DNA of 64,000 bases from Escherichia phage EP1, in the sequence record OR892555.1. One strand, given 5' to 3'. The notes beneath the pieces were generated by a model that searched no databases, was not told the DNA's origin, and worked only from the letters and a program-made list of their open reading frames with translations. Both the position numbers and the translations under genes were made by a program. The number at the start of each line of letters is the position of its first letter. The first letter of the stretch is position 1. Positions 1,762-14,525 of the stretch are shown one piece after another.

Positions 1762-2142
1762 TCAGTTAATTTTAAAGATAGTTACATAACCATCACTACC
1801 AATCATCTGAGAAACTCCAGCTTTCTCGACATTGTAACCCATTTTATCAAGATGGTAAATAGCATCTTCATAACCATATGCCGCGCCTTGATAGCGTCTC
1901 TTCTCACATTTTATCAAGGTTTTACCACGTCCAGCAAGTGCATTAATGATAGCTTTATCACCTGATAAACTACCGTCTAGCATAGTTGCGCGGTAATGGT
2001 TTATTTTGTTGCCATTCACATCATACTTAAAATTGTATGCGTGAACAACAATTATTTTACCTTTGAATTTTTCATCAAGTGTTTTCTCCAGTACATCACG
2101 AAAATTTTCTTTGCTGATGAACTTAGGTGCACGATATTTCAT
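1762..2142 (-). CDS. hypothetical early protein
   Basis: 126-aa ORF with cassette leader. Confidence 0.55.
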   Translation of the reverse strand: MKYRAPKFISKENFRDVLEKTLDEKFKGKIIVVHAYNFKYDVNGNKINHYRATMLDGSLSGDKAIINALAGRGKTLIKCEKRRYQGAAYGYEDAIYHLDKMGYNVEKAGVSQMIGSDGYVTIFKIN

Positions 2143-2193
2143 TTTGAATCTCCAGTTTAGGATTGATTTAGTAAAGCTCTTTATCTGGGGCTT

Positions 2194-2223
2194 ATGGTAT
2201 CAATCTTTTAAGCCCCTTGTAAA
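2194..2223 (-). promoter_or_regulatory. sigma70-like early promoter, cassette copy 4 (TTTACA-18 nt-TACCAT); perfect inverted repeat GGGGCTTA/TAAGCCCC spans it
   Basis: repeat copy; -10 differs in sequence but keeps TAnnAT and position. Confidence 0.45.
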
Positions 2224-2228
2224 GTACT

Positions 2229-2390
2229 TTATGCAATAATTTTTATAACTTCTTTTAGTGTGATGTTTTCGCCATTTGTCAAGGCTAAGCATTTGTTACC
2301 AGTGCATGACAAGTAACTAAACGAGACTTTACCAGTTTTAGAAAATCCGTCAAGCCCTTTGTAAGTAATGATAGAGTTTTCTTTTATCAT
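2229..2390 (-). CDS. possible small ORF (53 aa) missed by the 60-aa ORF track
   Basis: ATG at 2388-2390 to TAA at 2229-2231 translated by hand (MIKENSIITYKGLDGF...); fills a gap between genes but has no clear Shine-Dalgarno. Confidence 0.25.
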   Translation of the reverse strand: MIKENSIITYKGLDGFSKTGKVSFSYLSCTGNKCLALTNGENITLKEVIKIIA

Positions 2391-2401
2391 TTGTCAAGCC
2401 C

Positions 2402-2608
2402 TTAAACATCATAATAATAGGTTGCTGTATGTCGAATATGTTTTCTTGTGTGAGTTGTCAAGTAACAAGCTGAATTAATTGATGTATTTACATACATATC
2501 ATAATCTTTCTCTGATATACGTTGCCAAACGTCACAAATCAACATATAAAAACGACGATGTTTTGTTTCAGTATTATCTACAATCATTAATTCACGTTGA
2601 TATAACAT
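2402..2608 (-). CDS. hypothetical early protein
   Basis: 68-aa ORF immediately downstream of cassette copy 5. Confidence 0.45.
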   Translation of the reverse strand: MLYQRELMIVDNTETKHRRFYMLICDVWQRISEKDYDMYVNTSINSACYLTTHTRKHIRHTATYYYDV

Positions 2609-2658
2609 TTTCAGATTCTCCAGTTTAGGAAGTGGGCTTGCTTGCCCGTCTGATGCAA

Positions 2659-2687
2659 ATACTAAATAACTTTGTTTTGCAGGTCAA
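2659..2687 (-). promoter_or_regulatory. sigma70-like early promoter, cassette copy 5 (TTGACC-17 nt-TAGTAT), GC hairpin leader at 2634-2647
   Basis: hexamers and spacing read directly on minus strand. Confidence 0.4.
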
Positions 2688-2779
2688 GCAAATTTTTAAA
2701 AATATTTTTAGGAATTGCCAGAGGAGAACGCGCACACGACTACCACAAAACATAGCACAAATCAAGAATTATTTTTCAG

Positions 2780-3042
2780 TTCTCTACAGATTTTTCTCTT
2801 GACTTTTGGGGAGAGGGGGAGTAAGAGGGGGAGAGGGGCAGGGCTGGCACTATCTACCTACCTGCACAATTCTAAAATGATTTTTCTTGCCCGACACTCG
2901 CCGGGTCTGCACGTTTTGAAAATGAAAAAGCTCTTTGGAGTCCACCTGCACAAATTGAAAATGAATTTTCCCTTTGGATTTCAAAATTTTCTCTACAGAT
3001 TTCTGTCCAGACTTTTACCTGCACAATTTTAAAATGAAAAAG
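2780..3042. repeat. ORF-free region with four copies of a ~20-25 bp motif (CCTGCACAAnTTnnAAAATGAA; 2861-2880, 2907-2930, 2945-2965, 3018-3042) and two copies of TTCTCTACAGATTT (2780-2795, 2989-3005)
   Basis: direct repeats at irregular spacing; no credible ORF on the transcribed strand. Confidence 0.6.
2808..2846 (+). repeat. polypurine G-rich tract (GGGGAGAGGGGGAGTAAGAGGGGGAGAGGGGCAGGG) with five G-runs
   Basis: read directly; stands out in an AT-rich genome. Confidence 0.6.
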
Positions 3043-3110
3043 CCCTCCTTACCTGAAAATTTTACCAGATAAGAAAGGCTTAGTCTATTGTGAATATGCT
3101 ACAGAGTTTC

Positions 3111-3893
3111 TTAGTTCTTTGCAGCTAAGAACTTGATATTGGAAATGTCTACAATTGCTTCAGCATCTTTCTCATTTGCTGCAAGAATGTACACATCAGG
3201 TTCACTTCCAAATGTCGCTGCACGTTGCATACTGCCTTTCAACGGTGGGGTAACTTGAGCGTTACTTAGAGACATTCTCTCAACCGGAGGGTTACTCCGA
3301 TGTACCTTGTTCTTACGATGCCTGAAGAGGGTAACTCCGTCTTCGTTGACAACGGCTACCCCTGCAAAGTATTGTGGTTCACTGTGATTACCCCATGTTG
3401 ACAGAGTATTAAACATTGCCTCTTCAAATACGTAAAGGTAAACATCAACATCTTTCAAGATGTGATTCATGATTACCACAACAGCTTTCGGGTCAAGTCC
3501 ACCAATACCTGCACCAATCATTGGGAGACCAACTTTCTTCAGTTGATTCACTTTGCAGTACTGGTTAAGGCTCAACAAAGCACTCTCAAGAGCATCGTAA
3601 CGAGCATCTTTACCAGTCTTCAACTGAGTGTACAGGTTAGCAATACGGCCTTGTTTAAGACGTGCTACAGAGAGTTTACCAAGCAGTTTCTGACAAGGTT
3701 TATGCTCTCTTCCTCCTGCTACACGGTAGACTTCGGCATCAGTTTCATAGGCTTTTGGGTAACCTTTAGAAATCTTGTCAGCAATACCTGCACCCATCAG
3801 GTTCATACAGTTGCAACCGTGACCAATGATATCAAACTTACCTTTTTCAAAGTCTGCGAAGATATCACCTTTGATGACTTTTACAATACCCAT
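3111..3893 (-). CDS. macro-domain protein (ADP-ribose binding/processing) with ~90-aa C-terminal extension
   Basis: N-terminal GDIF...DIIGHGCNCMNLMGAGIADKI and later GLPMIGAGIGG match macro-domain glycine-rich signatures. Confidence 0.8.
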   Translation of the reverse strand: MGIVKVIKGDIFADFEKGKFDIIGHGCNCMNLMGAGIADKISKGYPKAYETDAEVYRVAGGREHKPCQKLLGKLSVARLKQGRIANLYTQLKTGKDARYDALESALLSLNQYCKVNQLKKVGLPMIGAGIGGLDPKAVVVIMNHILKDVDVYLYVFEEAMFNTLSTWGNHSEPQYFAGVAVVNEDGVTLFRHRKNKVHRSNPPVERMSLSNAQVTPPLKGSMQRAATFGSEPDVYILAANEKDAEAIVDISNIKFLAAKN

Positions 3894-3894
3894 C

Positions 3895-4095
3895 TTACCA
3901 TTTCTCCCATGATTCTTTATCTTCAGAAGGTTTTACACGTTGACCTTCATGGTCTACCCAGATTCCACCACAACCTTCACAGAGTGTTGGCATAGCATAA
4001 CCAGCTTTGAACTCTTCTTCAGAGATAAGACCTCTCAAGTCTCCTGTATCACGTCCAAACAGTTCGATGGAACAATCTTTGCAGAAATCAGCCAT
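3895..4095 (-). CDS. small zinc-ribbon protein (two CxxC pairs)
   Basis: 66-aa ORF with CKDC ... CEGC. Confidence 0.5.
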   Translation of the reverse strand: MADFCKDCSIELFGRDTGDLRGLISEEEFKAGYAMPTLCEGCGGIWVDHEGQRVKPSEDKESWEKW

Positions 4096-4315
4096 TTGAT
4101 ATTACCTCTTGGAAGAATGTACCTTTCAAATCCCATTCAGCTTTATAATCAGTCAATGTGTTAGTATCGAACATTGTATAATATTTGTAATCACCATTCT
4201 TAAACTGGTCATGCAGTGATGGGTTGCAGAACGGAGCTACTGTATCCCTGTCCAAGAATACAGCACCAGATAACACTTTGCGTGTATTTTTACACCTTAC
4301 TAATATTGCTTTCAT
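4088..4315 (-). CDS. hypothetical protein
   Basis: 75-aa ORF in the minus-strand gene array. Confidence 0.45.
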   Translation of the reverse strand: MKAILVRCKNTRKVLSGAVFLDRDTVAPFCNPSLHDQFKNGDYKYYTMFDTNTLTDYKAEWDLKGTFFQEVISNG

Positions 4316-4616
4316 AAAGTACCTTCTCTGTTAACTCGTACAAGTCTACATGTTCAATGCCAGCAATGTCAATACCAAGTTTAGCATATCGCTCTTTGAT
4401 GCCTTCTTTATTTTGAAATATGAGACACCAATGATTTCTTAAAGACTCTTCCAGTTTATCTACACAATCATGAAAGGTTGGTGTGTCACCTCTTGTACCA
4501 ACCATTGCCACAACACCATAAAGAAACTCACCATTACCATATGTGACTTGTGCTACACCAATATCTTTCTCACTATCTTGGATGACAGCTACAAAGGTTT
4601 TACCGTTCAATTCCAT
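4290..4616 (-). CDS. hypothetical protein
   Basis: 108-aa ORF. Confidence 0.5.
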   Translation of the reverse strand: MELNGKTFVAVIQDSEKDIGVAQVTYGNGEFLYGVVAMVGTRGDTPTFHDCVDKLEESLRNHWCLIFQNKEGIKERYAKLGIDIAGIEHVDLYELTEKVLYESNISKV

Positions 4617-4773
4617 CAGAGACTACCTCTTCAATTTGCTGTAGAATTGCTTCTGAAGTTTCTTCCCACATCGTCATACTGTCAATATCACCACAACAAC
4701 TTTCTCCAGCAACGTTGTAACGTGCTTGACCATATTCTTTGATGAGTTCAATCAACTTCTCTTTGCTTGACAT
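4600..4773 (-). CDS. possible small acidic ORF (57 aa) missed by the ORF track
   Basis: ATG at 4771-4773 preceded by GAGGAAG; fills the 4616-4775 gap and overlaps the next start by 17 nt. Confidence 0.3.
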   Translation of the reverse strand: MSSKEKLIELIKEYGQARYNVAGESCCGDIDSMTMWEETSEAILQQIEEVVSDGIER

Positions 4774-4774
4774 G

Positions 4775-5044
4775 TTACTTCCTCGTTTTGAGAACTGCCA
4801 TAATTTCTTTGGTATCTTCTAAGAACCATGTGTAGTGATTCTCTTTTATTTCTGGATGAGTGTCAATCTTTAATTTGCAATCTCTTCCAGTATCTTTCAG
4901 TTGAGTTGTGATACCCTTCATAAAGATATGGCACATCACATCATCCATAACCATTGGCATGAAGTCAATGCGCATGTAAGTATCTTTTGGTCTTGGAAGA
5001 AGTAAATAACCTTCTGTATAGAACAGTTCTGTCTCTTGACTCAT
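4775..5044 (-). CDS. hypothetical protein
   Basis: 89-aa ORF. Confidence 0.5.
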   Translation of the reverse strand: MSQETELFYTEGYLLLPRPKDTYMRIDFMPMVMDDVMCHIFMKGITTQLKDTGRDCKLKIDTHPEIKENHYTWFLEDTKEIMAVLKTRK

Positions 5045-5310
5045 TGCTGCTTATTCCCTAACAAAATCATATCAATCAAATTATTGGCTTTCATCGTACA
5101 CTGATAGTACCCATCACGATAAAATTCAAGGGCTTGTGACAGGTCTGTGCCTGTATTACCCTTGACAACGTAGCGTGATTCTTCTTGAGTATACTTATCA
5201 CTTTCACTTACTTGGGAGTTTTTGAACGTAGAGTTCACTTTGTTCATTGAACACCCTGACATAAGTATCAGTAGCACAAATGTTATAAAACTCTGGCTTA
5301 GTCTTTTCAT
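5041..5310 (-). CDS. putative lipoprotein, candidate outer-membrane spanin subunit
   Basis: signal peptide ending in lipobox-like LMSGC; gene overlaps the 3' end of the preceding membrane-protein gene. Confidence 0.4.
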   Translation of the reverse strand: MKRLSQSFITFVLLILMSGCSMNKVNSTFKNSQVSESDKYTQEESRYVVKGNTGTDLSQALEFYRDGYYQCTMKANNLIDMILLGNKQQ

Positions 5311-5551
5311 ATGTCAATACCTCTTTTGTGTGTTTGTTTTTAGCAAGCACGTCTTTCAAATCATTTTTGTAACTGGAGCTAAGATTTGCTAAACCTTCTT
5401 GGTAAGCATCCTTAGCAACACTTACAAGTTTCTGGTTAGTTAACTCTGTTTGAGTGACTTGGTAATCCTTGTAAGAATAACCCCCCCAGACACCTACACC
5501 AATCAGAAAAACAACTATGAAAGCGGCTTGACAGAACTCTTTAAATTTCAT
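5204..5551 (-). CDS. type-II membrane protein, candidate inner-membrane spanin subunit
   Basis: N-terminal TM (AAFIVVFLIGVGVWGG) then hydrophilic domain; overlapped by the lipoprotein gene in another frame. Confidence 0.4.
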   Translation of the reverse strand: MKFKEFCQAAFIVVFLIGVGVWGGYSYKDYQVTQTELTNQKLVSVAKDAYQEGLANLSSSYKNDLKDVLAKNKHTKEVLTYEKTKPEFYNICATDTYVRVFNEQSELYVQKLPSK

Positions 5552-5567
5552 TTGTCAATCTCCTAAA

Positions 5568-5592
5568 ACGAAAAAGGCTCCCGAAGGAGCCT
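5568..5592 (-). terminator. rho-independent terminator (GGCTCC-cgaa-GGAGCC then U-run on minus strand)
   Basis: perfect 6-bp GC stem, tetraloop, T-tract read directly. Confidence 0.6.
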
Positions 5593-5603
5593 GTATCATA
5601 ACC

Positions 5604-6068
5604 TTAACCGAGGACTTTAGCAAGGACATTTGCAGCCATCGTCGAAGCTTTTGCAGCAGCAGCTACGCCAGCTTTGATAGTGCTATCCTTAATGGCAGAT
5701 ACCGTTGCAGCATCAGTAAAGAGATATGTGGTAGTTTGTGAACCACTTGTAAAGGAAAGCATAAGAGCAGTTTCCAGATTGAAAGAACGGTACGGAGCAC
5801 CGGACTGTACAATTCCTTTAGCACCCAACTCTGAAGCCATACCCATGTCATAGATGGTCATCAGGTTTTCTTTATGTGCTGTAGTAGAACCGACACCTTT
5901 AACGTGTTTTGAAACGTTCAGCAGAGCACGATATTCACGGATATCACCATCAGCTTTTACATTGACAGCACGAAAGATTTTGCCATCAAAGTTGCTTTTA
6001 ATGATATCACGAACAACCTGTGATTTGTTTGCTGATGCGTCGATAGCTACTGTAATAATGTTTTGCAT
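5604..6068 (-). CDS. hypothetical protein (154 aa, Ala/Ser/Thr-rich C-terminus)
   Basis: ORF with own terminator downstream; no recognisable motif. Confidence 0.5.
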   Translation of the reverse strand: MQNIITVAIDASANKSQVVRDIIKSNFDGKIFRAVNVKADGDIREYRALLNVSKHVKGVGSTTAHKENLMTIYDMGMASELGAKGIVQSGAPYRSFNLETALMLSFTSGSQTTTYLFTDAATVSAIKDSTIKAGVAAAAKASTMAANVLAKVLG

Positions 6069-6080
6069 GATTTCTCTCTC

Positions 6081-6776
6081 TTAGTGTTTGATAAGCATTG
6101 TGTTAATTTCTGGAAGGATTCGTTTAACCTTCTCAACATTCCTTACTGTATCTTCTATAAAACATACTACATCATAGTACGGAAGAATGCAAGACTGAAT
6201 CATACGAACTTTCAAACTTTCTGCACTGATTCTATTTGAACCAAAACCACGCATAAAAAGCATGTAGTCAGTCACGATATGCTTGTCAATAAACAAGTGG
6301 GTTGGTACACGTTGAGACTCACCACGAGCAGTTAAAACACCGATTGCAGCACTTTTATGGATGCCTGAAATGATGTTAAAGATGTACGTAGGTTGTGCAT
6401 CAACTGACTCAATCAAGTTTGTATACTGTGACAGAGTGCCATCTTCCAGATATGTTGAGTTTGTTGGCTTATCAAACTTAGTGAGAACACCATCAATATC
6501 TGTTAAAACCATTGGCTTCTTCATATCAAGGTCTTTTGCAACCAAGATTAAGCTGTCACGTTTAACGGCTACTGACTTACCTGTTTGAAGGTCTGTACAG
6601 AGAACTGTTTCAGCAGATGAATGAAAGTTTTTGAAGTCACATTCAACAACCCTTGCAGTATCTGCAAAGTCTTCTTTCATAAGGTCTGTCCAGCTTGCAG
6701 CACTAATATCAATAGCCAGAGGATTGATATCGTAAGCGTGACAAAATACCTTATCCAATTGTTTTAATTCGCTCAT
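6081..6776 (-). CDS. HAD-superfamily phosphatase/nucleotidase-like protein
   Basis: DIDGVL (DxDG motif I), GVLTAR (motif II) and FIEDTVRN (motif IV-like); track start is TTG at 6818, first in-frame ATG is 6776 by frame arithmetic; start uncertain. Confidence 0.35.
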   Translation of the reverse strand: MSELKQLDKVFCHAYDINPLAIDISAASWTDLMKEDFADTARVVECDFKNFHSSAETVLCTDLQTGKSVAVKRDSLILVAKDLDMKKPMVLTDIDGVLTKFDKPTNSTYLEDGTLSQYTNLIESVDAQPTYIFNIISGIHKSAAIGVLTARGESQRVPTHLFIDKHIVTDYMLFMRGFGSNRISAESLKVRMIQSCILPYYDVVCFIEDTVRNVEKVKRILPEINTMLIKH

Positions 6777-7302
6777 GTTTAACCTTTTTGATGTTTGTTG
6801 CAAACTCACATTGAGCAAGCACCTTCATGTTATTGTACACATCTTGAGAGTATTGTCTAGCTTTTGGAATGTGGTATGAGTATCCTGCATTATATGAAGC
6901 CAAGACACGCTGTAAAGAGTATTTCCCATTAGGATTACCATGAACCTTAGTCCAGAACTGAAGCTCTTTGTGTGTCTCCTTTGCAGCATAATCGAAGTCT
7001 CTGACAAGTTTCTTCTTAGCTACATTTGGGTTAACTTTGTTACGCTTTACAACAGTCTTCAAGTGATTCTGGAACAATCCATAATCGTGAGTCTTTTTAT
7101 TTTCAAGACGAAGACCTAACTCTGACTCTTGTAAGGCTATAGCGGCTAAGGTTAATCCCCAACCTTTACCCATCTCTTTCTCACCGTAGTGATAAGCTTT
7201 AAGCATGTTTGTTTTCTGACTGATGGATAATTCTGGACAGTCTGAAGCGACTGCCAGATGTGCTGTTAAGAATAAGCACAAACCTAAAATGAACTTCTTC
7301 AT
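6751..7302 (-). CDS. secreted lytic transglycosylase (SLT domain) with cleavable signal peptide; candidate endolysin
   Basis: signal peptide MKKFILGLCLFLTAHLAVA; SLT motifs ES, GLFQ and SYNAG in order. Confidence 0.7.
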   Translation of the reverse strand: MKKFILGLCLFLTAHLAVASDCPELSISQKTNMLKAYHYGEKEMGKGWGLTLAAIALQESELGLRLENKKTHDYGLFQNHLKTVVKRNKVNPNVAKKKLVRDFDYAAKETHKELQFWTKVHGNPNGKYSLQRVLASYNAGYSYHIPKARQYSQDVYNNMKVLAQCEFATNIKKVKHERIKTIG

Positions 7303-11781: not shown

Positions 11782-13599
11782 TTAAAGCTGTCTGTCAATA
11801 ACATTTCGTACATCACGAAGATTAACGTAGCCATATGGCTGAGAGTCACAGAATACCAACTTCAGAGCACACTGAGGGTTATCTAGTACGCTTTCAAATT
11901 CTGCAAAACCAAAACCATCTACAGCTTCCAGCTTATCACCATCCCACATAGGGACTACACCGCCAAAAGCAGACTTCTTCAGACCACTATCAGTTTTAGG
12001 GTCTTTTGCCAGCATGATTTCTTCCCCATCTATCTGTGCAAGAGTTGCTTTGACAGCGAATGCAAAGGTATCACGAGTCAGGTACTGGTAAGTGTATGAA
12101 CCAACACCAAAAACAACGTTAGAACTTGCAAAGCCCTTTTCAGCAAGACGACTAAGAATCTCTTCAGCACGTTCCAGAGTGATAGAATCACCGTAGATTA
12201 AGCCAATGTGCTCATCAAGAACTTTGTAGCCTTTAGAGTTTACAGTTCCACCAAAGATATTGTACAGAGTCTTGATAGCACCATCAATTTCTGCTGTCAG
12301 CATACGTTTAACAACAACTTTACCAGTCTTGTAAGTTTCTTTCAGGTTAACTGTATCAGCAACGTTAAAGTCTTCTGCATCAACAACTAACTCATAACCT
12401 TCAGAGATTAGCCAAGCAGAGAAACCATAACCCATATCTGTCATGTTACAATTCAAGATTGCATCAAGCAGATAAGTATTGTCAGGAGAAATGGTTGACA
12501 TGTGTTTGTAATACATACTCTTAGCATTTTCCCATTCAATTGCACGATAACCAGTAACAATGTGTACAGGGTCACCGGAATCTGGACGGATTACCAGTTT
12601 ACCGTCACGTTTCAGGATTACTTCACGAAGTTCTGGAAGAATCTGTGTAACAGTGCGCCAGAAGTTATAAGTATCTGAAACCACACTTGCAATGCCAGTT
12701 GGGTAAACATCAACTAACAGATGTTCGAAGGTGTCTACTTCACCGCGCCAACGCATTGCATCTAACAGGTTTTCAGACTGCATAAGATGCCAATCACTAA
12801 CCTCTTTAGATGTACCATTCCATGAGATGTTTGCACACATCACAGAGTGTTCAGTTGCTGGTACAGAGTTGCCAATATCACTTACAGTCATGAACTGACC
12901 ATATGCACGTTTAGCAGTATACACAGCAGGGAAGCTGTCAGTGCCTTTAAAGCTGGTCAGGTGACCTACAGCATTGAAAGCATCATCTGTAAAGCCAGAC
13001 ATACCACGCATTGCAAAGTCGTGACACTGCCAAGGTAGATGGAAGTCATTATCACAGGTCTTATCAGCCCAAGATTTACAAATACGTTTGTAATGCAGTG
13101 CAATAGTTGCAATGGTACAAGCTTTCCAGATTTCAGCAGAGAAAGCATCTTCCAGATAACCAGCTACCCAATGGAAACCTTCGACGGTATTTTTGAAGAT
13201 AATCATTGGAACGCGCATAGGAACGATTGTACCTTCTTCAACAGAGTACACTGCAACTGGCAGATAACCTAAGTCATGAAGTTCTTCCCAATGATGACGC
13301 TTGATAGCATCTGCACCAAGAACACCATTCATTATTTCCAAGATTTCATCAACTGCTTCTTTCTTATCACGTTCAAAGAAAGTTGCGTTCCAATGGTCTA
13401 CTAAGTAATCTTTAACGAAACGTTGAATACCAAAAGCAACTACACCGTCAGTCTCCAAAGGGGTGTTAAACCATTTGTCACCACGAGGTGTCAGGTTCAG
13501 CATCAGATACTGAGTTGCACTCGGATACTGGTAGATGTGACCAGCTTTATAAGCATCTGCATTAAGACCTGCTGGAACTGCATAGATTGATTTAGACAT
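11782..13599 (-). CDS. nicotinamide phosphoribosyltransferase-family enzyme (Nampt/NadV-like, or nicotinamide ADP-ribose transferase of a NAD+ reconstitution pathway)
   Basis: 605-aa ORF with overall Nampt-family character; paired with a Prs-family gene; exact substrate cannot be decided by eye. Confidence 0.75.
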   Translation of the reverse strand: MSKSIYAVPAGLNADAYKAGHIYQYPSATQYLMLNLTPRGDKWFNTPLETDGVVAFGIQRFVKDYLVDHWNATFFERDKKEAVDEILEIMNGVLGADAIKRHHWEELHDLGYLPVAVYSVEEGTIVPMRVPMIIFKNTVEGFHWVAGYLEDAFSAEIWKACTIATIALHYKRICKSWADKTCDNDFHLPWQCHDFAMRGMSGFTDDAFNAVGHLTSFKGTDSFPAVYTAKRAYGQFMTVSDIGNSVPATEHSVMCANISWNGTSKEVSDWHLMQSENLLDAMRWRGEVDTFEHLLVDVYPTGIASVVSDTYNFWRTVTQILPELREVILKRDGKLVIRPDSGDPVHIVTGYRAIEWENAKSMYYKHMSTISPDNTYLLDAILNCNMTDMGYGFSAWLISEGYELVVDAEDFNVADTVNLKETYKTGKVVVKRMLTAEIDGAIKTLYNIFGGTVNSKGYKVLDEHIGLIYGDSITLERAEEILSRLAEKGFASSNVVFGVGSYTYQYLTRDTFAFAVKATLAQIDGEEIMLAKDPKTDSGLKKSAFGGVVPMWDGDKLEAVDGFGFAEFESVLDNPQCALKLVFCDSQPYGYVNLRDVRNVIDRQL

Positions 13600-13643
13600 G
13601 TTTTAATCTCTCTCAAAGTGGGGCTTAAAAGCCCCTGATTAAT

Positions 13644-14525
13644 TTAATAAATGTTTGCTACAGTTACTTGACCGAAATGAGTCAGACCACGGTCTTTCAC
13701 ACTACCTAAAGAATCTGTAGTGTAGATGTGTGAAATACCATTGTCAAGTAGGTTTTCAACACCTTTTGAGAAAATACCATGTGTTACATACAGTTCAACT
13801 TTAGCTGCTCCAGCTTCACGAAGATACTTGGCTGCTTCAATGAAGGTACGACCACCATCACAGATATCATCAATGATGAGTACAGTTTTACCAGTAAGGT
13901 CTACATCATCAAGCAGACGCATACCTGTAATCTCACCAGTCTTAAGGTCTCGAACCTTAGCCATTGTTACGTAAGGCTTATCAACCTCTTTAGCCGTCTC
14001 TGCAATCTTCTTAGCTGCTCCTGCATCTGGTGCTACCAAGAAATCAATGGTAGGCTCACTGGCATAATGTGCTGCAACATCTTTTTGATGGATGTTTTGG
14101 AAGCATTTGAATAGGTTGTCTGCAACGTCACTGTGAGCATCCAGAGCACATACTGCATCAAAATCCATTGCATTTACCAGATTAGCAAACACTTTAAGTG
14201 CTGCTGCATCACCTTTAAACATGTGACGGTCATATCTAGCATTTGGCAGATAAGCAAAAATAACAGTTTTCATAGTTGCTTTCTGAGGAATCATTTTGTC
14301 AATTGCCTCTTTTGCCAGAGCTAAAGCAAACAAGGTGTCTTTGTCATAACCCTGTACAGTGAAGATGACGTTCTCAATATTGGAAGCATTCTTTTCAGCA
14401 TAGGTCACTAGGTCTTCAGAGAAGTTACCACCAATTTCTCCAGACGGGAACTGGATAATGTTGAACTCTTCTTGGTGAGCACCTTTTTTCTGTGAATGCA
14501 ACAGTACGCTAATAATAGTTTTCAT
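13644..14525 (-). CDS. ribose-phosphate pyrophosphokinase-family enzyme (Prs-like, or ADP-ribose pyrophosphokinase of a NAD+ reconstitution pathway)
   Basis: 293 aa; Prs-type motifs DAHSD and PRPP-binding loop VLIIDDICDGGRT. Confidence 0.8.
   Translation of the reverse strand: MKTIISVLLHSQKKGAHQEEFNIIQFPSGEIGGNFSEDLVTYAEKNASNIENVIFTVQGYDKDTLFALALAKEAIDKMIPQKATMKTVIFAYLPNARYDRHMFKGDAAALKVFANLVNAMDFDAVCALDAHSDVADNLFKCFQNIHQKDVAAHYASEPTIDFLVAPDAGAAKKIAETAKEVDKPYVTMAKVRDLKTGEITGMRLLDDVDLTGKTVLIIDDICDGGRTFIEAAKYLREAGAAKVELYVTHGIFSKGVENLLDNGISHIYTTDSLGSVKDRGLTHFGQVTVANIY

Follow-up and report, generated by a model that had tools for sequence, protein, structure and literature searches.

A macro-domain protein with a lineage-specific C-terminal domain in the Felix O1-like phage EP1 and its possible role in counter-defence

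Macro domains are found in 41% of myoviruses (Iyer et al. 2022), and the roles of these very common phage domains were first assigned in 2025-2026. Here, the macro-domain gene at positions 3111-3893 of a 64,000-nucleotide stretch of Escherichia phage EP1 (OR892555.1; the whole stretch is called the window below) is compared with the two characterised members of the phage family. One of them is tk.4 of T4, long annotated as 'phosphatase, A1pp motif'. In the November 2025 preprint describing HIDEN-SEQ, tk.4 was the single T4 gene conditionally essential on DarTG2; the result was confirmed by a clean knockout, and the gene was named adfM, AdfM standing for anti-DarT factor Macrodomain (bioRxiv 10.1101/2025.11.20.689424). 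The other is Adpp, a Poa1p-like macro protein described in a January 2026 preprint. According to that work, defences of the aRES (RES-domain) type phosphorolyse nicotinamide adenine dinucleotide (NAD+) to nicotinamide and ADP-ribose-1''-phosphate (ADPR-1''P), which is unusable by NARP1. Adpp is encoded in the operon of 15% of NARP1 phages; the purified Adpp of Vibrio phage Gary converts ADPR-1''P to ADP-ribose (ADPR), and the operon of Adps, Adpp and Namat overcomes aRES (bioRxiv 10.64898/2026.01.28.702374). Two preprints have given one family two jobs, protection from DarTG2 in T4 and dephosphorylation of ADPR-1''P for NARP1 in Vibrio phages. The phage macro family is known, and the lineage-specific orphan domain attached to it in the window is new. 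By homology, this gene, which lies among the early genes of a Felix O1-like phage, probably encodes a counter-defence enzyme of two domains.

The window belongs to a Felix O1-like coliphage of the subfamily Ounavirinae, genus Suspvirus. The initial annotation had described a macro-domain protein with an unassignable C-terminal part, and this description was borne out by the open reading frame (ORF), the quoted motifs (GDIF, GHGCNCMNLMGAGIADKI and GLPMIGAGIGG), the Pfam family PF01661 and an AlphaFold2 model. The ORF list has an ATG-to-stop frame of 260 amino acids (aa) exactly at 3111-3893 on the minus strand, and the plus-strand translation of the same positions contains many stops. The product is 98.8% identical in aa sequence to gp090 of phage SUSP2, annotated as 'phosphatase'. 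It can be seen that the macro gene is real, both from its conservation at the DNA level in 279 phage records and from a ratio of nonsynonymous to synonymous substitution rates (dN/dS, ω) below 1 in both domains. The parts of the gene are as follows.

3111..3893, minus strand: whole coding sequence, 260 aa and the stop codon (3111-3113), from the ORF list and the SUSP2 gp090 ortholog
3423..3893, minus strand: macro domain, residues 1-157, from PF01661, Foldseek, the family profile and homology to Tk.4 and Adpp
3807..3821, minus strand: H25-G-C-N28-C29 motif of invariant or near-invariant columns, with N28 at the position of the DarG catalytic Asn
3780..3797, minus strand: M33-G-A-G-I-A38, first glycine-rich loop, binding the ADP-ribose phosphate, with G34, G36 and A38 conserved
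3624..3638, minus strand: N86-L-Y-T-Q90 motif, with N86 and Q90 invariant in 24 family members
3498..3524, minus strand: P124-M-I-G-A-G-I-G-G132, second glycine-rich loop, aligned with TARG1 'PRIGCGLDRL'
3114..3422, minus strand: beta-rich C-terminal domain, residues 158-260, with no relatives detected beyond macro fusions of the Ounavirinae type

The Pfam Macro family (PF01661) matches residues 25-142 at 33.3 bits, over profile positions 2-118 of 118 and above the gathering cut-off of 22 bits, and PHROG 335 ('phosphatase') spans residues 1-259 (E=8e-100). The full-length AlphaFold2 model, built on 24 homologs, has a mean predicted local distance difference test (pLDDT) score of 92.9 and a predicted template modelling (pTM) score of 0.89, with a macro fold at about residues 1-157 and the beta-rich domain at 158-260. 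From the high full-length pTM, the two domains appear to be packed against each other with their relative orientation fixed. When the model was compared with the Protein Data Bank (PDB) by Foldseek, the leading matches were TARG1 (1.9e-11), Poa1p (1.7e-10) and DarG of Mycobacterium tuberculosis (Mtb; 6.9e-10), with a target-normalised TM-score to TARG1 of 0.84-0.89. The family profile placed Mtb DarG (9.8e-17), TARG1 (1.5e-16), SCO6735 (1e-14), BT1257 (3.4e-14) and Poa1p (3.5e-13) at the top of the PDB matches, and TARG1/OARD1, Poa1p and DarG were also the best solved relatives by sequence search. Viral nsP3 macro domains scored far lower than TARG1, DarG, SCO6735 and Poa1p. The fold is thus established as that of the ALC1/TARG1-like class (the TARG1/DarG/Poa1p type). 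The likeness to MacroD and Af1521 raised in the initial annotation is rejected, because TARG1, DarG, Poa1p and SCO6735 rank first in every search.

The state of the active site is established from an alignment of 24 family members, in which G26, N28, C29, G36, A38, G72, N86, Q90, P124, G127 and G129 are invariant. N28 aligns with the Asn of 'VNTVNC' in Mtb DarG and with N23 of PhiKZ gp104, and catalytic roles have been described for N22 of TaqDarG and N23 of PhiKZ AdfM (PMC13309987). The loop M33-A38 aligns with MGAGIA of TARG1 and MGKGIA of DarG. A check of the catalytic residues, as proposed in the initial annotation, gave a divided result. The Asn is present; the catalytic Lys of DarG (K80, Mtb 'FPTK') and TARG1 (K84, 'ITK') and the catalytic Asp125 of TARG1 are both missing, their positions being taken by Q90 and G131. 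DarG itself is without the TARG1-type Asp (PMC9411070). A Gln at the Lys position is common to the window protein, T4 AdfM, SCO6735 (Q85) and all Adpp-type proteins. In SCO6735 this Gln85 is essential, the Q85A mutant being inactive, and the enzyme strips thymidine-linked ADP-ribose and protects cells from DarT (PMC9411070). Loss of the Lys is therefore no argument against activity, and the pair of Asn28 and Gln90 without a catalytic Lys makes a water-mediated mechanism like the one proposed for SCO6735 probable. As a separate observation, almost identical DNA underlies the two glycine-rich loops, GAGIGG and MGAGIA, in the form of a 21-nucleotide (nt) direct repeat that is 90% identical between 3500-3520 and 3779-3799.

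Macro-domain homologs were detected by tblastn in 2,859 phage records, T4 tk.4 included. Over the macro domain, the window protein is 40% identical to T4 Tk.4 (E 2e-24), and HGCNC, NLYTQ and P-IGAGIG are identical in the two, including the Gln at the DarG Lys position. Vibrio phage Pylo has the same arrangement of Adps, macro gene and Namat as Gary, and its macro protein, gp175, closely resembles the Gary Adpp sequence (Table S1 of 10.64898/2026.01.28.702374). With Pylo gp175, the window protein shares 32% identity (E 4e-18) and T4 Tk.4 shares 34%. Membership in one family is established for T4 AdfM, Adpp and the window protein on the basis of these mutual identities of 32-40%. Both substrates proposed for the family are forms of ADP-ribose with a substituent on the 1'' carbon, thymine N3 for AdfM and phosphate for Adpp, and the roles of AdfM and Adpp are therefore compatible. 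Removal of thymidine-linked ADP-ribose is reported to be shared by DarG, TARG1, SCO6735 and the fly Targ proteins (PMC9411070; PMC12879935).

Modelled alone, the C-terminal domain reaches a pLDDT of 83.7. No match was found to Pfam at E<=10, and a search of BFVD returned the SUSP2 ortholog alone. In a profile search of 1.84 billion representative proteins, the domain was found only at the C-terminus of the same macro proteins of about 250 aa and in two gene fragments; the remaining weak matches were to long repeat proteins and were judged spurious. Nor was similarity seen to tk.3 of T4, the gene downstream of tk.4. Mean pairwise identity is 23.9% in this domain and 51.7% in the macro domain, the C-terminal value being the lower in 105 of 105 pairs. 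In a set of eight orthologs, the C-terminal domain has a dN/dS of 0.35 and the macro domain one of 0.16, while their synonymous rates are nearly equal (dS 0.94 and 0.96). The pattern of conservation and selection is thus established: the C-terminal domain has about double the divergence rate of the macro domain, and the two ω values at equal dS indicate that it is real and under purifying selection but less constrained. It contains no invariant column, and only one Pro, one Gly and one Tyr are conserved at 90% or more. A catalytic role is unlikely because no invariant polar residue exists, and a catalytic domain such as a 2H phosphodiesterase was set aside on the same near-invariant residues. 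A consistently acidic (DNA-mimic) or basic (DNA-binding) domain was also rejected, the isoelectric point ranging from 4.8 to 9.2 across homologs. We infer that the domain was gained once, in the ancestor of Ounavirinae, and that it may serve as an accessory binding module for DNA or substrate, for a toxin or defence protein, or for self-association.

A neighbour-joining tree of 40 sequences with 200 bootstraps was built from the family alignment, Table S1 of the aRES paper, T4 Tk.4, PhiKZ gp104 and segments of TARG1 and DarG. The two-domain proteins of Ounavirinae form one clade (bootstrap 80), which falls in a poorly resolved group of HGCNC/NLYTQ/IGAGIG sequences together with T4 AdfM and other single-domain phage macro proteins. 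The Adpp proteins of the Gary type and of Pakpunavirus stand outside the HGCNC/NLYTQ group; they have HQ(C/A)NC, N(V/L)YGQY and IGCGLAG, and the Vibrio proteins carry an insertion in the N(V/L)YGQY region. The tree leans to the AdfM side but is compatible with the Adpp side.

The initial annotation had also placed the macro gene close to the NAD+ genes and had taken a Prs-like/Nampt-like pair for a counter-defence module. The following two features bear on these claims.

11782..14525, minus strand: NARP1 pair, Adps (Prs-like) at 13644-14525 and Namat (Nampt-like) at 11782-13599, from Pfam and the SUSP2 annotation
3030..3081, minus strand: terminator-like hairpin with a 17-base-pair (bp) stem and a T-run, 30 nt past the stop codon of the macro gene, from a consensus scan

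The second claim was upheld. The Prs-like gene (PF00156 and PF14572) and the Nampt-like gene (PF04095 and PF18127) have the same domain signature and genomic position as g79-80 of Bas63, whose NARP1 (Adps and Namat) is experimentally defined, and by these signatures the window pair is identified as NARP1. Because of this match, the names 'ribose-phosphate pyrophosphokinase' and 'nicotinamide phosphoribosyltransferase' are probably wrong in function. The claim of proximity stands only in part. The macro gene and NARP1 share the genome and the strand; they are separated by about 8 kb and at least 15 genes, among them rIIA, rIIB, a HAD-PNKP-like gene, the spanins and several small genes, and NARP1 lies upstream in the direction of transcription. 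A common operon was rejected on this distance, the many intervening genes and the terminator-like hairpin after the macro gene; at the same place, a rho-independent terminator was annotated in the record of phage wV8 by its authors. Among Escherichia phage records, 1000 have the macro gene and 177 have Adps. Outside Ounavirinae, the macro family is mostly independent of NARP1, and most carriers are without it. In an unrelated phage, Phapecoctavirus nepoznato, proximity of the macro gene to NARP1 was also rejected: no Prs or Nampt gene is annotated in a stretch of about 26 kb that reaches some 8 kb to one side of the macro gene and 17 kb to the other. Within Ounavirinae, the lineages examined were Suspvirus, Felixounavirus, Mooglevirus, Kolesnikvirus and three divergent metagenomic contigs, and in none of these four genera and three metagenomic lineages was either module, macro or NARP1, found alone. 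Between the roles of AdfM and Adpp, genomic context is as ambivalent as the tree.

The role considered most probable by homology, and given about one chance in two, is removal of DarT2 marks from phage DNA as by AdfM. It is favoured because the closest characterised homolog is Tk.4, which has identical motifs and whose knockout sensitises T4 to DarTG2; because the best solved profile relative is the macro domain of Mtb DarG, and the NCBIfam and PADLOC models of DarG match the macro part; and because the macro gene lies outside the NARP1 operon with its own terminator-like hairpin, in a family whose carriers mostly lack NARP1. The reversal of DarT-type ADP-ribosylation proposed in the initial annotation thus becomes a leading hypothesis by way of homology to Tk.4. 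Under it, the macro domain would bind ADP-ribose via its two glycine-rich loops and would release by hydrolysis the group that the distal ribose carries on its 1'' carbon, Asn28 and Gln90 probably acting as in SCO6735. Host DarT2 would ADP-ribosylate thymines in single-stranded phage DNA, the enzyme would take the ADP-ribose off, and replication and packaging would resume, the protein acting as an 'orphan antitoxin' against DarTG2 with its C-terminal domain as a non-catalytic accessory binding module. Several points weigh against this role. The function of the window protein and its Ounavirinae orthologs is read from homology, and no paper on an Ounavirinae AdfM was found in the literature. 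The evidence for T4 tk.4 is genetic only, and biochemical de-ADP-ribosylation of DNA has been shown only for the distant PhiKZ-type AdfM (PMC13309987). The genome-wide knockout screen of Bas63 (PhageMaP) used a defence panel without DarTG and makes no mention of the macro gene. No part of the C-terminal domain resembles the region of the DarG profiles that binds DarT. The deep nodes of the tree have bootstraps of at most 25%, and the NARP1-associated macro protein of Acinetobacter phage phiAbaA1 has the T4-like states HGCNC/NAYTQ. Subfamily position is therefore no clean predictor of substrate, and motifs alone were rejected as a discriminator between AdfM and Adpp. Lastly, NARP1 and the macro gene occur together in conserved synteny in every Ounavirinae lineage examined.

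This synteny, and the phiAbaA1 motif type with it, speak for the other described role, that of an ADPR-1''P phosphatase acting in trans with NARP1 and letting it rebuild NAD+ under defences of the aRES type. By analogy with Adpp, such a role is a serious possibility, somewhat short of probable, and would be compatible with that of AdfM; the processing of ADP-ribose derivatives named in the initial annotation survives as a leading hypothesis in this form. Besides the activity of Gary Adpp and the success of its operon against aRES, the evidence includes the identity to Pylo gp175, which is encoded between Adps and Namat like Gary Adpp, the Gln at the same position in all members and the presence of NARP1 in the window. 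NARP1 alone fails against aRES, and aRES systems have been cloned from E. coli, Klebsiella and Enterobacter. The NARP1 intermediate ADP-ribose pyrophosphate (ADPR-PP) also decays to cyclic ADPR phosphate and might be a further source of phosphorylated ADPR. However, Adpp is defined operationally by a place within two genes of NARP1, which the macro gene does not have. Table S1 of 10.64898/2026.01.28.702374 contains no phage of Escherichia or Salmonella and no Felix-like phage, and by identity, motif states and tree position the window protein is nearer to T4 AdfM than to Adpp of the Gary type. The conserved synteny may just reflect the stable genome layout of Ounavirinae, and T4-like phages retain the macro family without NARP1. 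Two further roles have much lower probability. Removal of the ADP-ribose that other host transferases (for example the mRNA ADP-ribosyltransferase CmdT) have placed on proteins or RNA, or deacetylation of O-acetyl-ADP-ribose, is improbable. The class relatives TARG1 and SCO6735 do act on protein-linked ADP-ribose (PMC9411070), and according to one report a defence by mRNA ADP-ribosylation exists against T-even phages (PMC11618068), but such activity has been shown for no family member, and the Lys84/Asp125 dyad of TARG1 for protein de-modification is replaced by Q90 and G131. O-acetyl-ADP-ribose had been named in the initial annotation; nothing points to it, and the label 'O-acetyl-ADP-ribose deacetylase' on some database records of orthologs is automatic annotation inherited from TARG1/OARD1. 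The least probable role, and a very doubtful one, is housekeeping clearance in RNA repair, in which ADPR-1''P would be dephosphorylated, as by Poa1p, after a 2'-phosphotransferase had acted in tRNA repair, together with the HAD-PNKP-like gene. Poa1p is among the best structural matches (1.7e-10), the HAD-PNKP-like gene is about 2 kb away, a faint likeness of Bas63 gp107 to the Tpt1 C-terminal domain was noted in PhageMaP, and T4 Tk.4 carries its historical A1pp phosphatase annotation. Yet a search of 10 neighbouring ORFs detected no Tpt1/KptA domain, the weak PNKP-like match is confined to the phosphatase domain, an RNA ligase was not seen in the vicinity, and the phenotype of the T4 homolog is defence-specific. 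An RNA-repair context was rejected on the neighbours without Tpt1/KptA, a window without tRNA genes and a downstream gap without an Rfam family.

The removal of DarT2 marks and the dephosphorylation of ADPR-1''P may also be joined in a single, more speculative proposal, which is considered rather unlikely in its full form. One active site would serve two counter-defences, erasing DarT2 thymine marks and dephosphorylating aRES-made ADPR-1''P for the distal NARP1. The C-terminal domain, which evolves fast, would supply a new and non-homologous module for binding and with it a second, stoichiometric layer (for example docking DarT2, aRES or single-stranded DNA), convergent with the two-domain logic of DarG.

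The surroundings of the macro gene consist of early genes of the host-takeover type. Its immediate upstream neighbour is the following.

3895..4095, minus strand: 66-aa CxxC...CxxC ORF, zinc-ribbon-like, whose stop codon abuts the macro start codon, from the ORF list

This ORF has no Pfam match and is probably co-transcribed with the macro gene. It adjoins the macro gene in Felixounavirus, Suspvirus and Mooglevirus; among the divergent contigs, it is 47% identical in one and unrecognisable in two others. An obligate partnership with the macro protein was rejected, the ORF being conserved in the closer genera only.

Several other observations were made in the window. The DNA is 97.8% identical to Escherichia phage EcSzw-2 over 4 kb and about 96% identical to SUSP2. 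The EcSzw-2 counterpart (MH791400.1, 6081-10743) of window positions 2000-6000 measures 4,663 bp against 4,001 bp, and EcSzw-2 thus has about 660 bp inserted at some point of this region that are absent from the window. Downstream of the macro gene, the gene-free gap 2609-3110 has no Rfam match. Four minus-strand copies of TCATTTTN6GTGCAG lie within 176 bp of this gap (2862-3037), where 0.19 copies would be expected in the whole 64-kb window; beyond the cluster come a C-rich tract (about 2800-2850) and then a sigma-70-like site (2687-2659). The copies could be regulator-binding sites, tandem promoters or iterons. Additionally, an intergenic module of about 60-100 nt, with copies 60-98% identical, is repeated at 728-816, 1329-1428, 1675-1772 and 2142-2242, with partial copies at 25-65 and 2614-2654. 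It sits between successive small minus-strand genes, and the copies are probably repeated early promoter or terminator cassettes. Pfam detected no kinase domain in the minus-strand gene at 6081-6818, named 'polynucleotide kinase' in SUSP2; its only match, weak and below the cut-off (18 bits), is to the PNKP phosphatase domain of the HAD type. Upstream of NARP1, the minus-strand gene at 16228-16713 matches PF13353 (4Fe-4S/radical-SAM activase) strongly (1.3e-43), and its product is presumably an anaerobic ribonucleotide reductase activase.

Felix O1-like phages are well suited to settling whether the family has one function or two, as they combine NARP1 without an adjacent phosphatase with a T4-AdfM-like macro gene elsewhere in the genome, and for Bas63 knockout tools already exist. 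Should the distal macro protein complete NARP1 against aRES, the share of NARP1 phages equipped with a phosphatase would be higher than the reported 15%; should it instead block DarTG2, the range of AdfM would come to include a phage group of therapeutic importance. Because diagnostics and therapy make use of Felix O1-like phages, it is of practical value to know which defences they evade. The function of the orphan domain could moreover reveal how a generic eraser gets directed to a particular target.

Comparison with the known systems shows how the parts of the window protein are distributed among its relatives. Like T4 Tk.4/AdfM, it is encoded by an orphan phage gene without an adjacent toxin, in an early or accessory region. 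Tk.4 is a single domain of 155 aa, whereas the window protein adds a C-terminal domain of 103 aa without a T4 counterpart; the anti-DarTG2 phenotype is known for T4 alone and would extend to the Ounavirinae protein by homology. Gary Adpp (KNV71_gp137) shares the His-x-x-Asn-Cys and Asn-x-Tyr-x-Gln motifs, and its phage also encodes Adps and Namat. It differs in being a single domain encoded between or at most two genes from Adps and Namat, whereas the window gene is about 8 kb off with its own terminator-like hairpin; HQ(C/A)NC, N(V/L)YGQY and IGCGLAG of the Gary and Pakpunavirus Adpp proteins are HGCNC, NLYTQ and IGAGIGG in the window protein. The chimallivirus AdfM, PhiKZ gp104 (Cell Rep 2026, PMC13309987), is likewise an orphan macro domain of the DarG/TARG1 class with the catalytic Asn kept (N23 for N28). 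It is only 22% identical (E 5e-4), has the Lys78 of a DarG-type 'FPTK' in place of Gln90, and is a single domain that is imported into the phage nucleus.

Among cellular proteins, DarG2 of DarTG2 is the best profile match of solved structure, and its layout of an N-terminal macro domain and a C-terminal domain is superficially parallel. However, the match to DarG (NCBIfam NF048014) reaches 45.2 bits against an equivalog cut-off of 250 and covers profile positions 3-149 of 338, the PADLOC DarG model is matched at positions 17-146 of 329 only, and Gln stands in place of Lys80. The window gene is an orphan in a lytic phage with no adjacent darT, its neighbours being small phage ORFs without a Pfam ADP-ribosyltransferase domain. 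Yeast Poa1p, the origin of the 'phosphatase' annotation, is a strong structural match, but it is a single-domain housekeeping enzyme of eukaryotic tRNA splicing. SCO6735 of Streptomyces coelicolor is a bacterial DNA-damage-inducible protein with a longer 'mobile loop' and no C-terminal domain. Like BT1257, it is an ALC1-like protein without the catalytic Lys (profile 1e-14 and 3.4e-14), and by transitivity through DarG and TARG1 its Q85 occupies the position of Q90 in the window protein.

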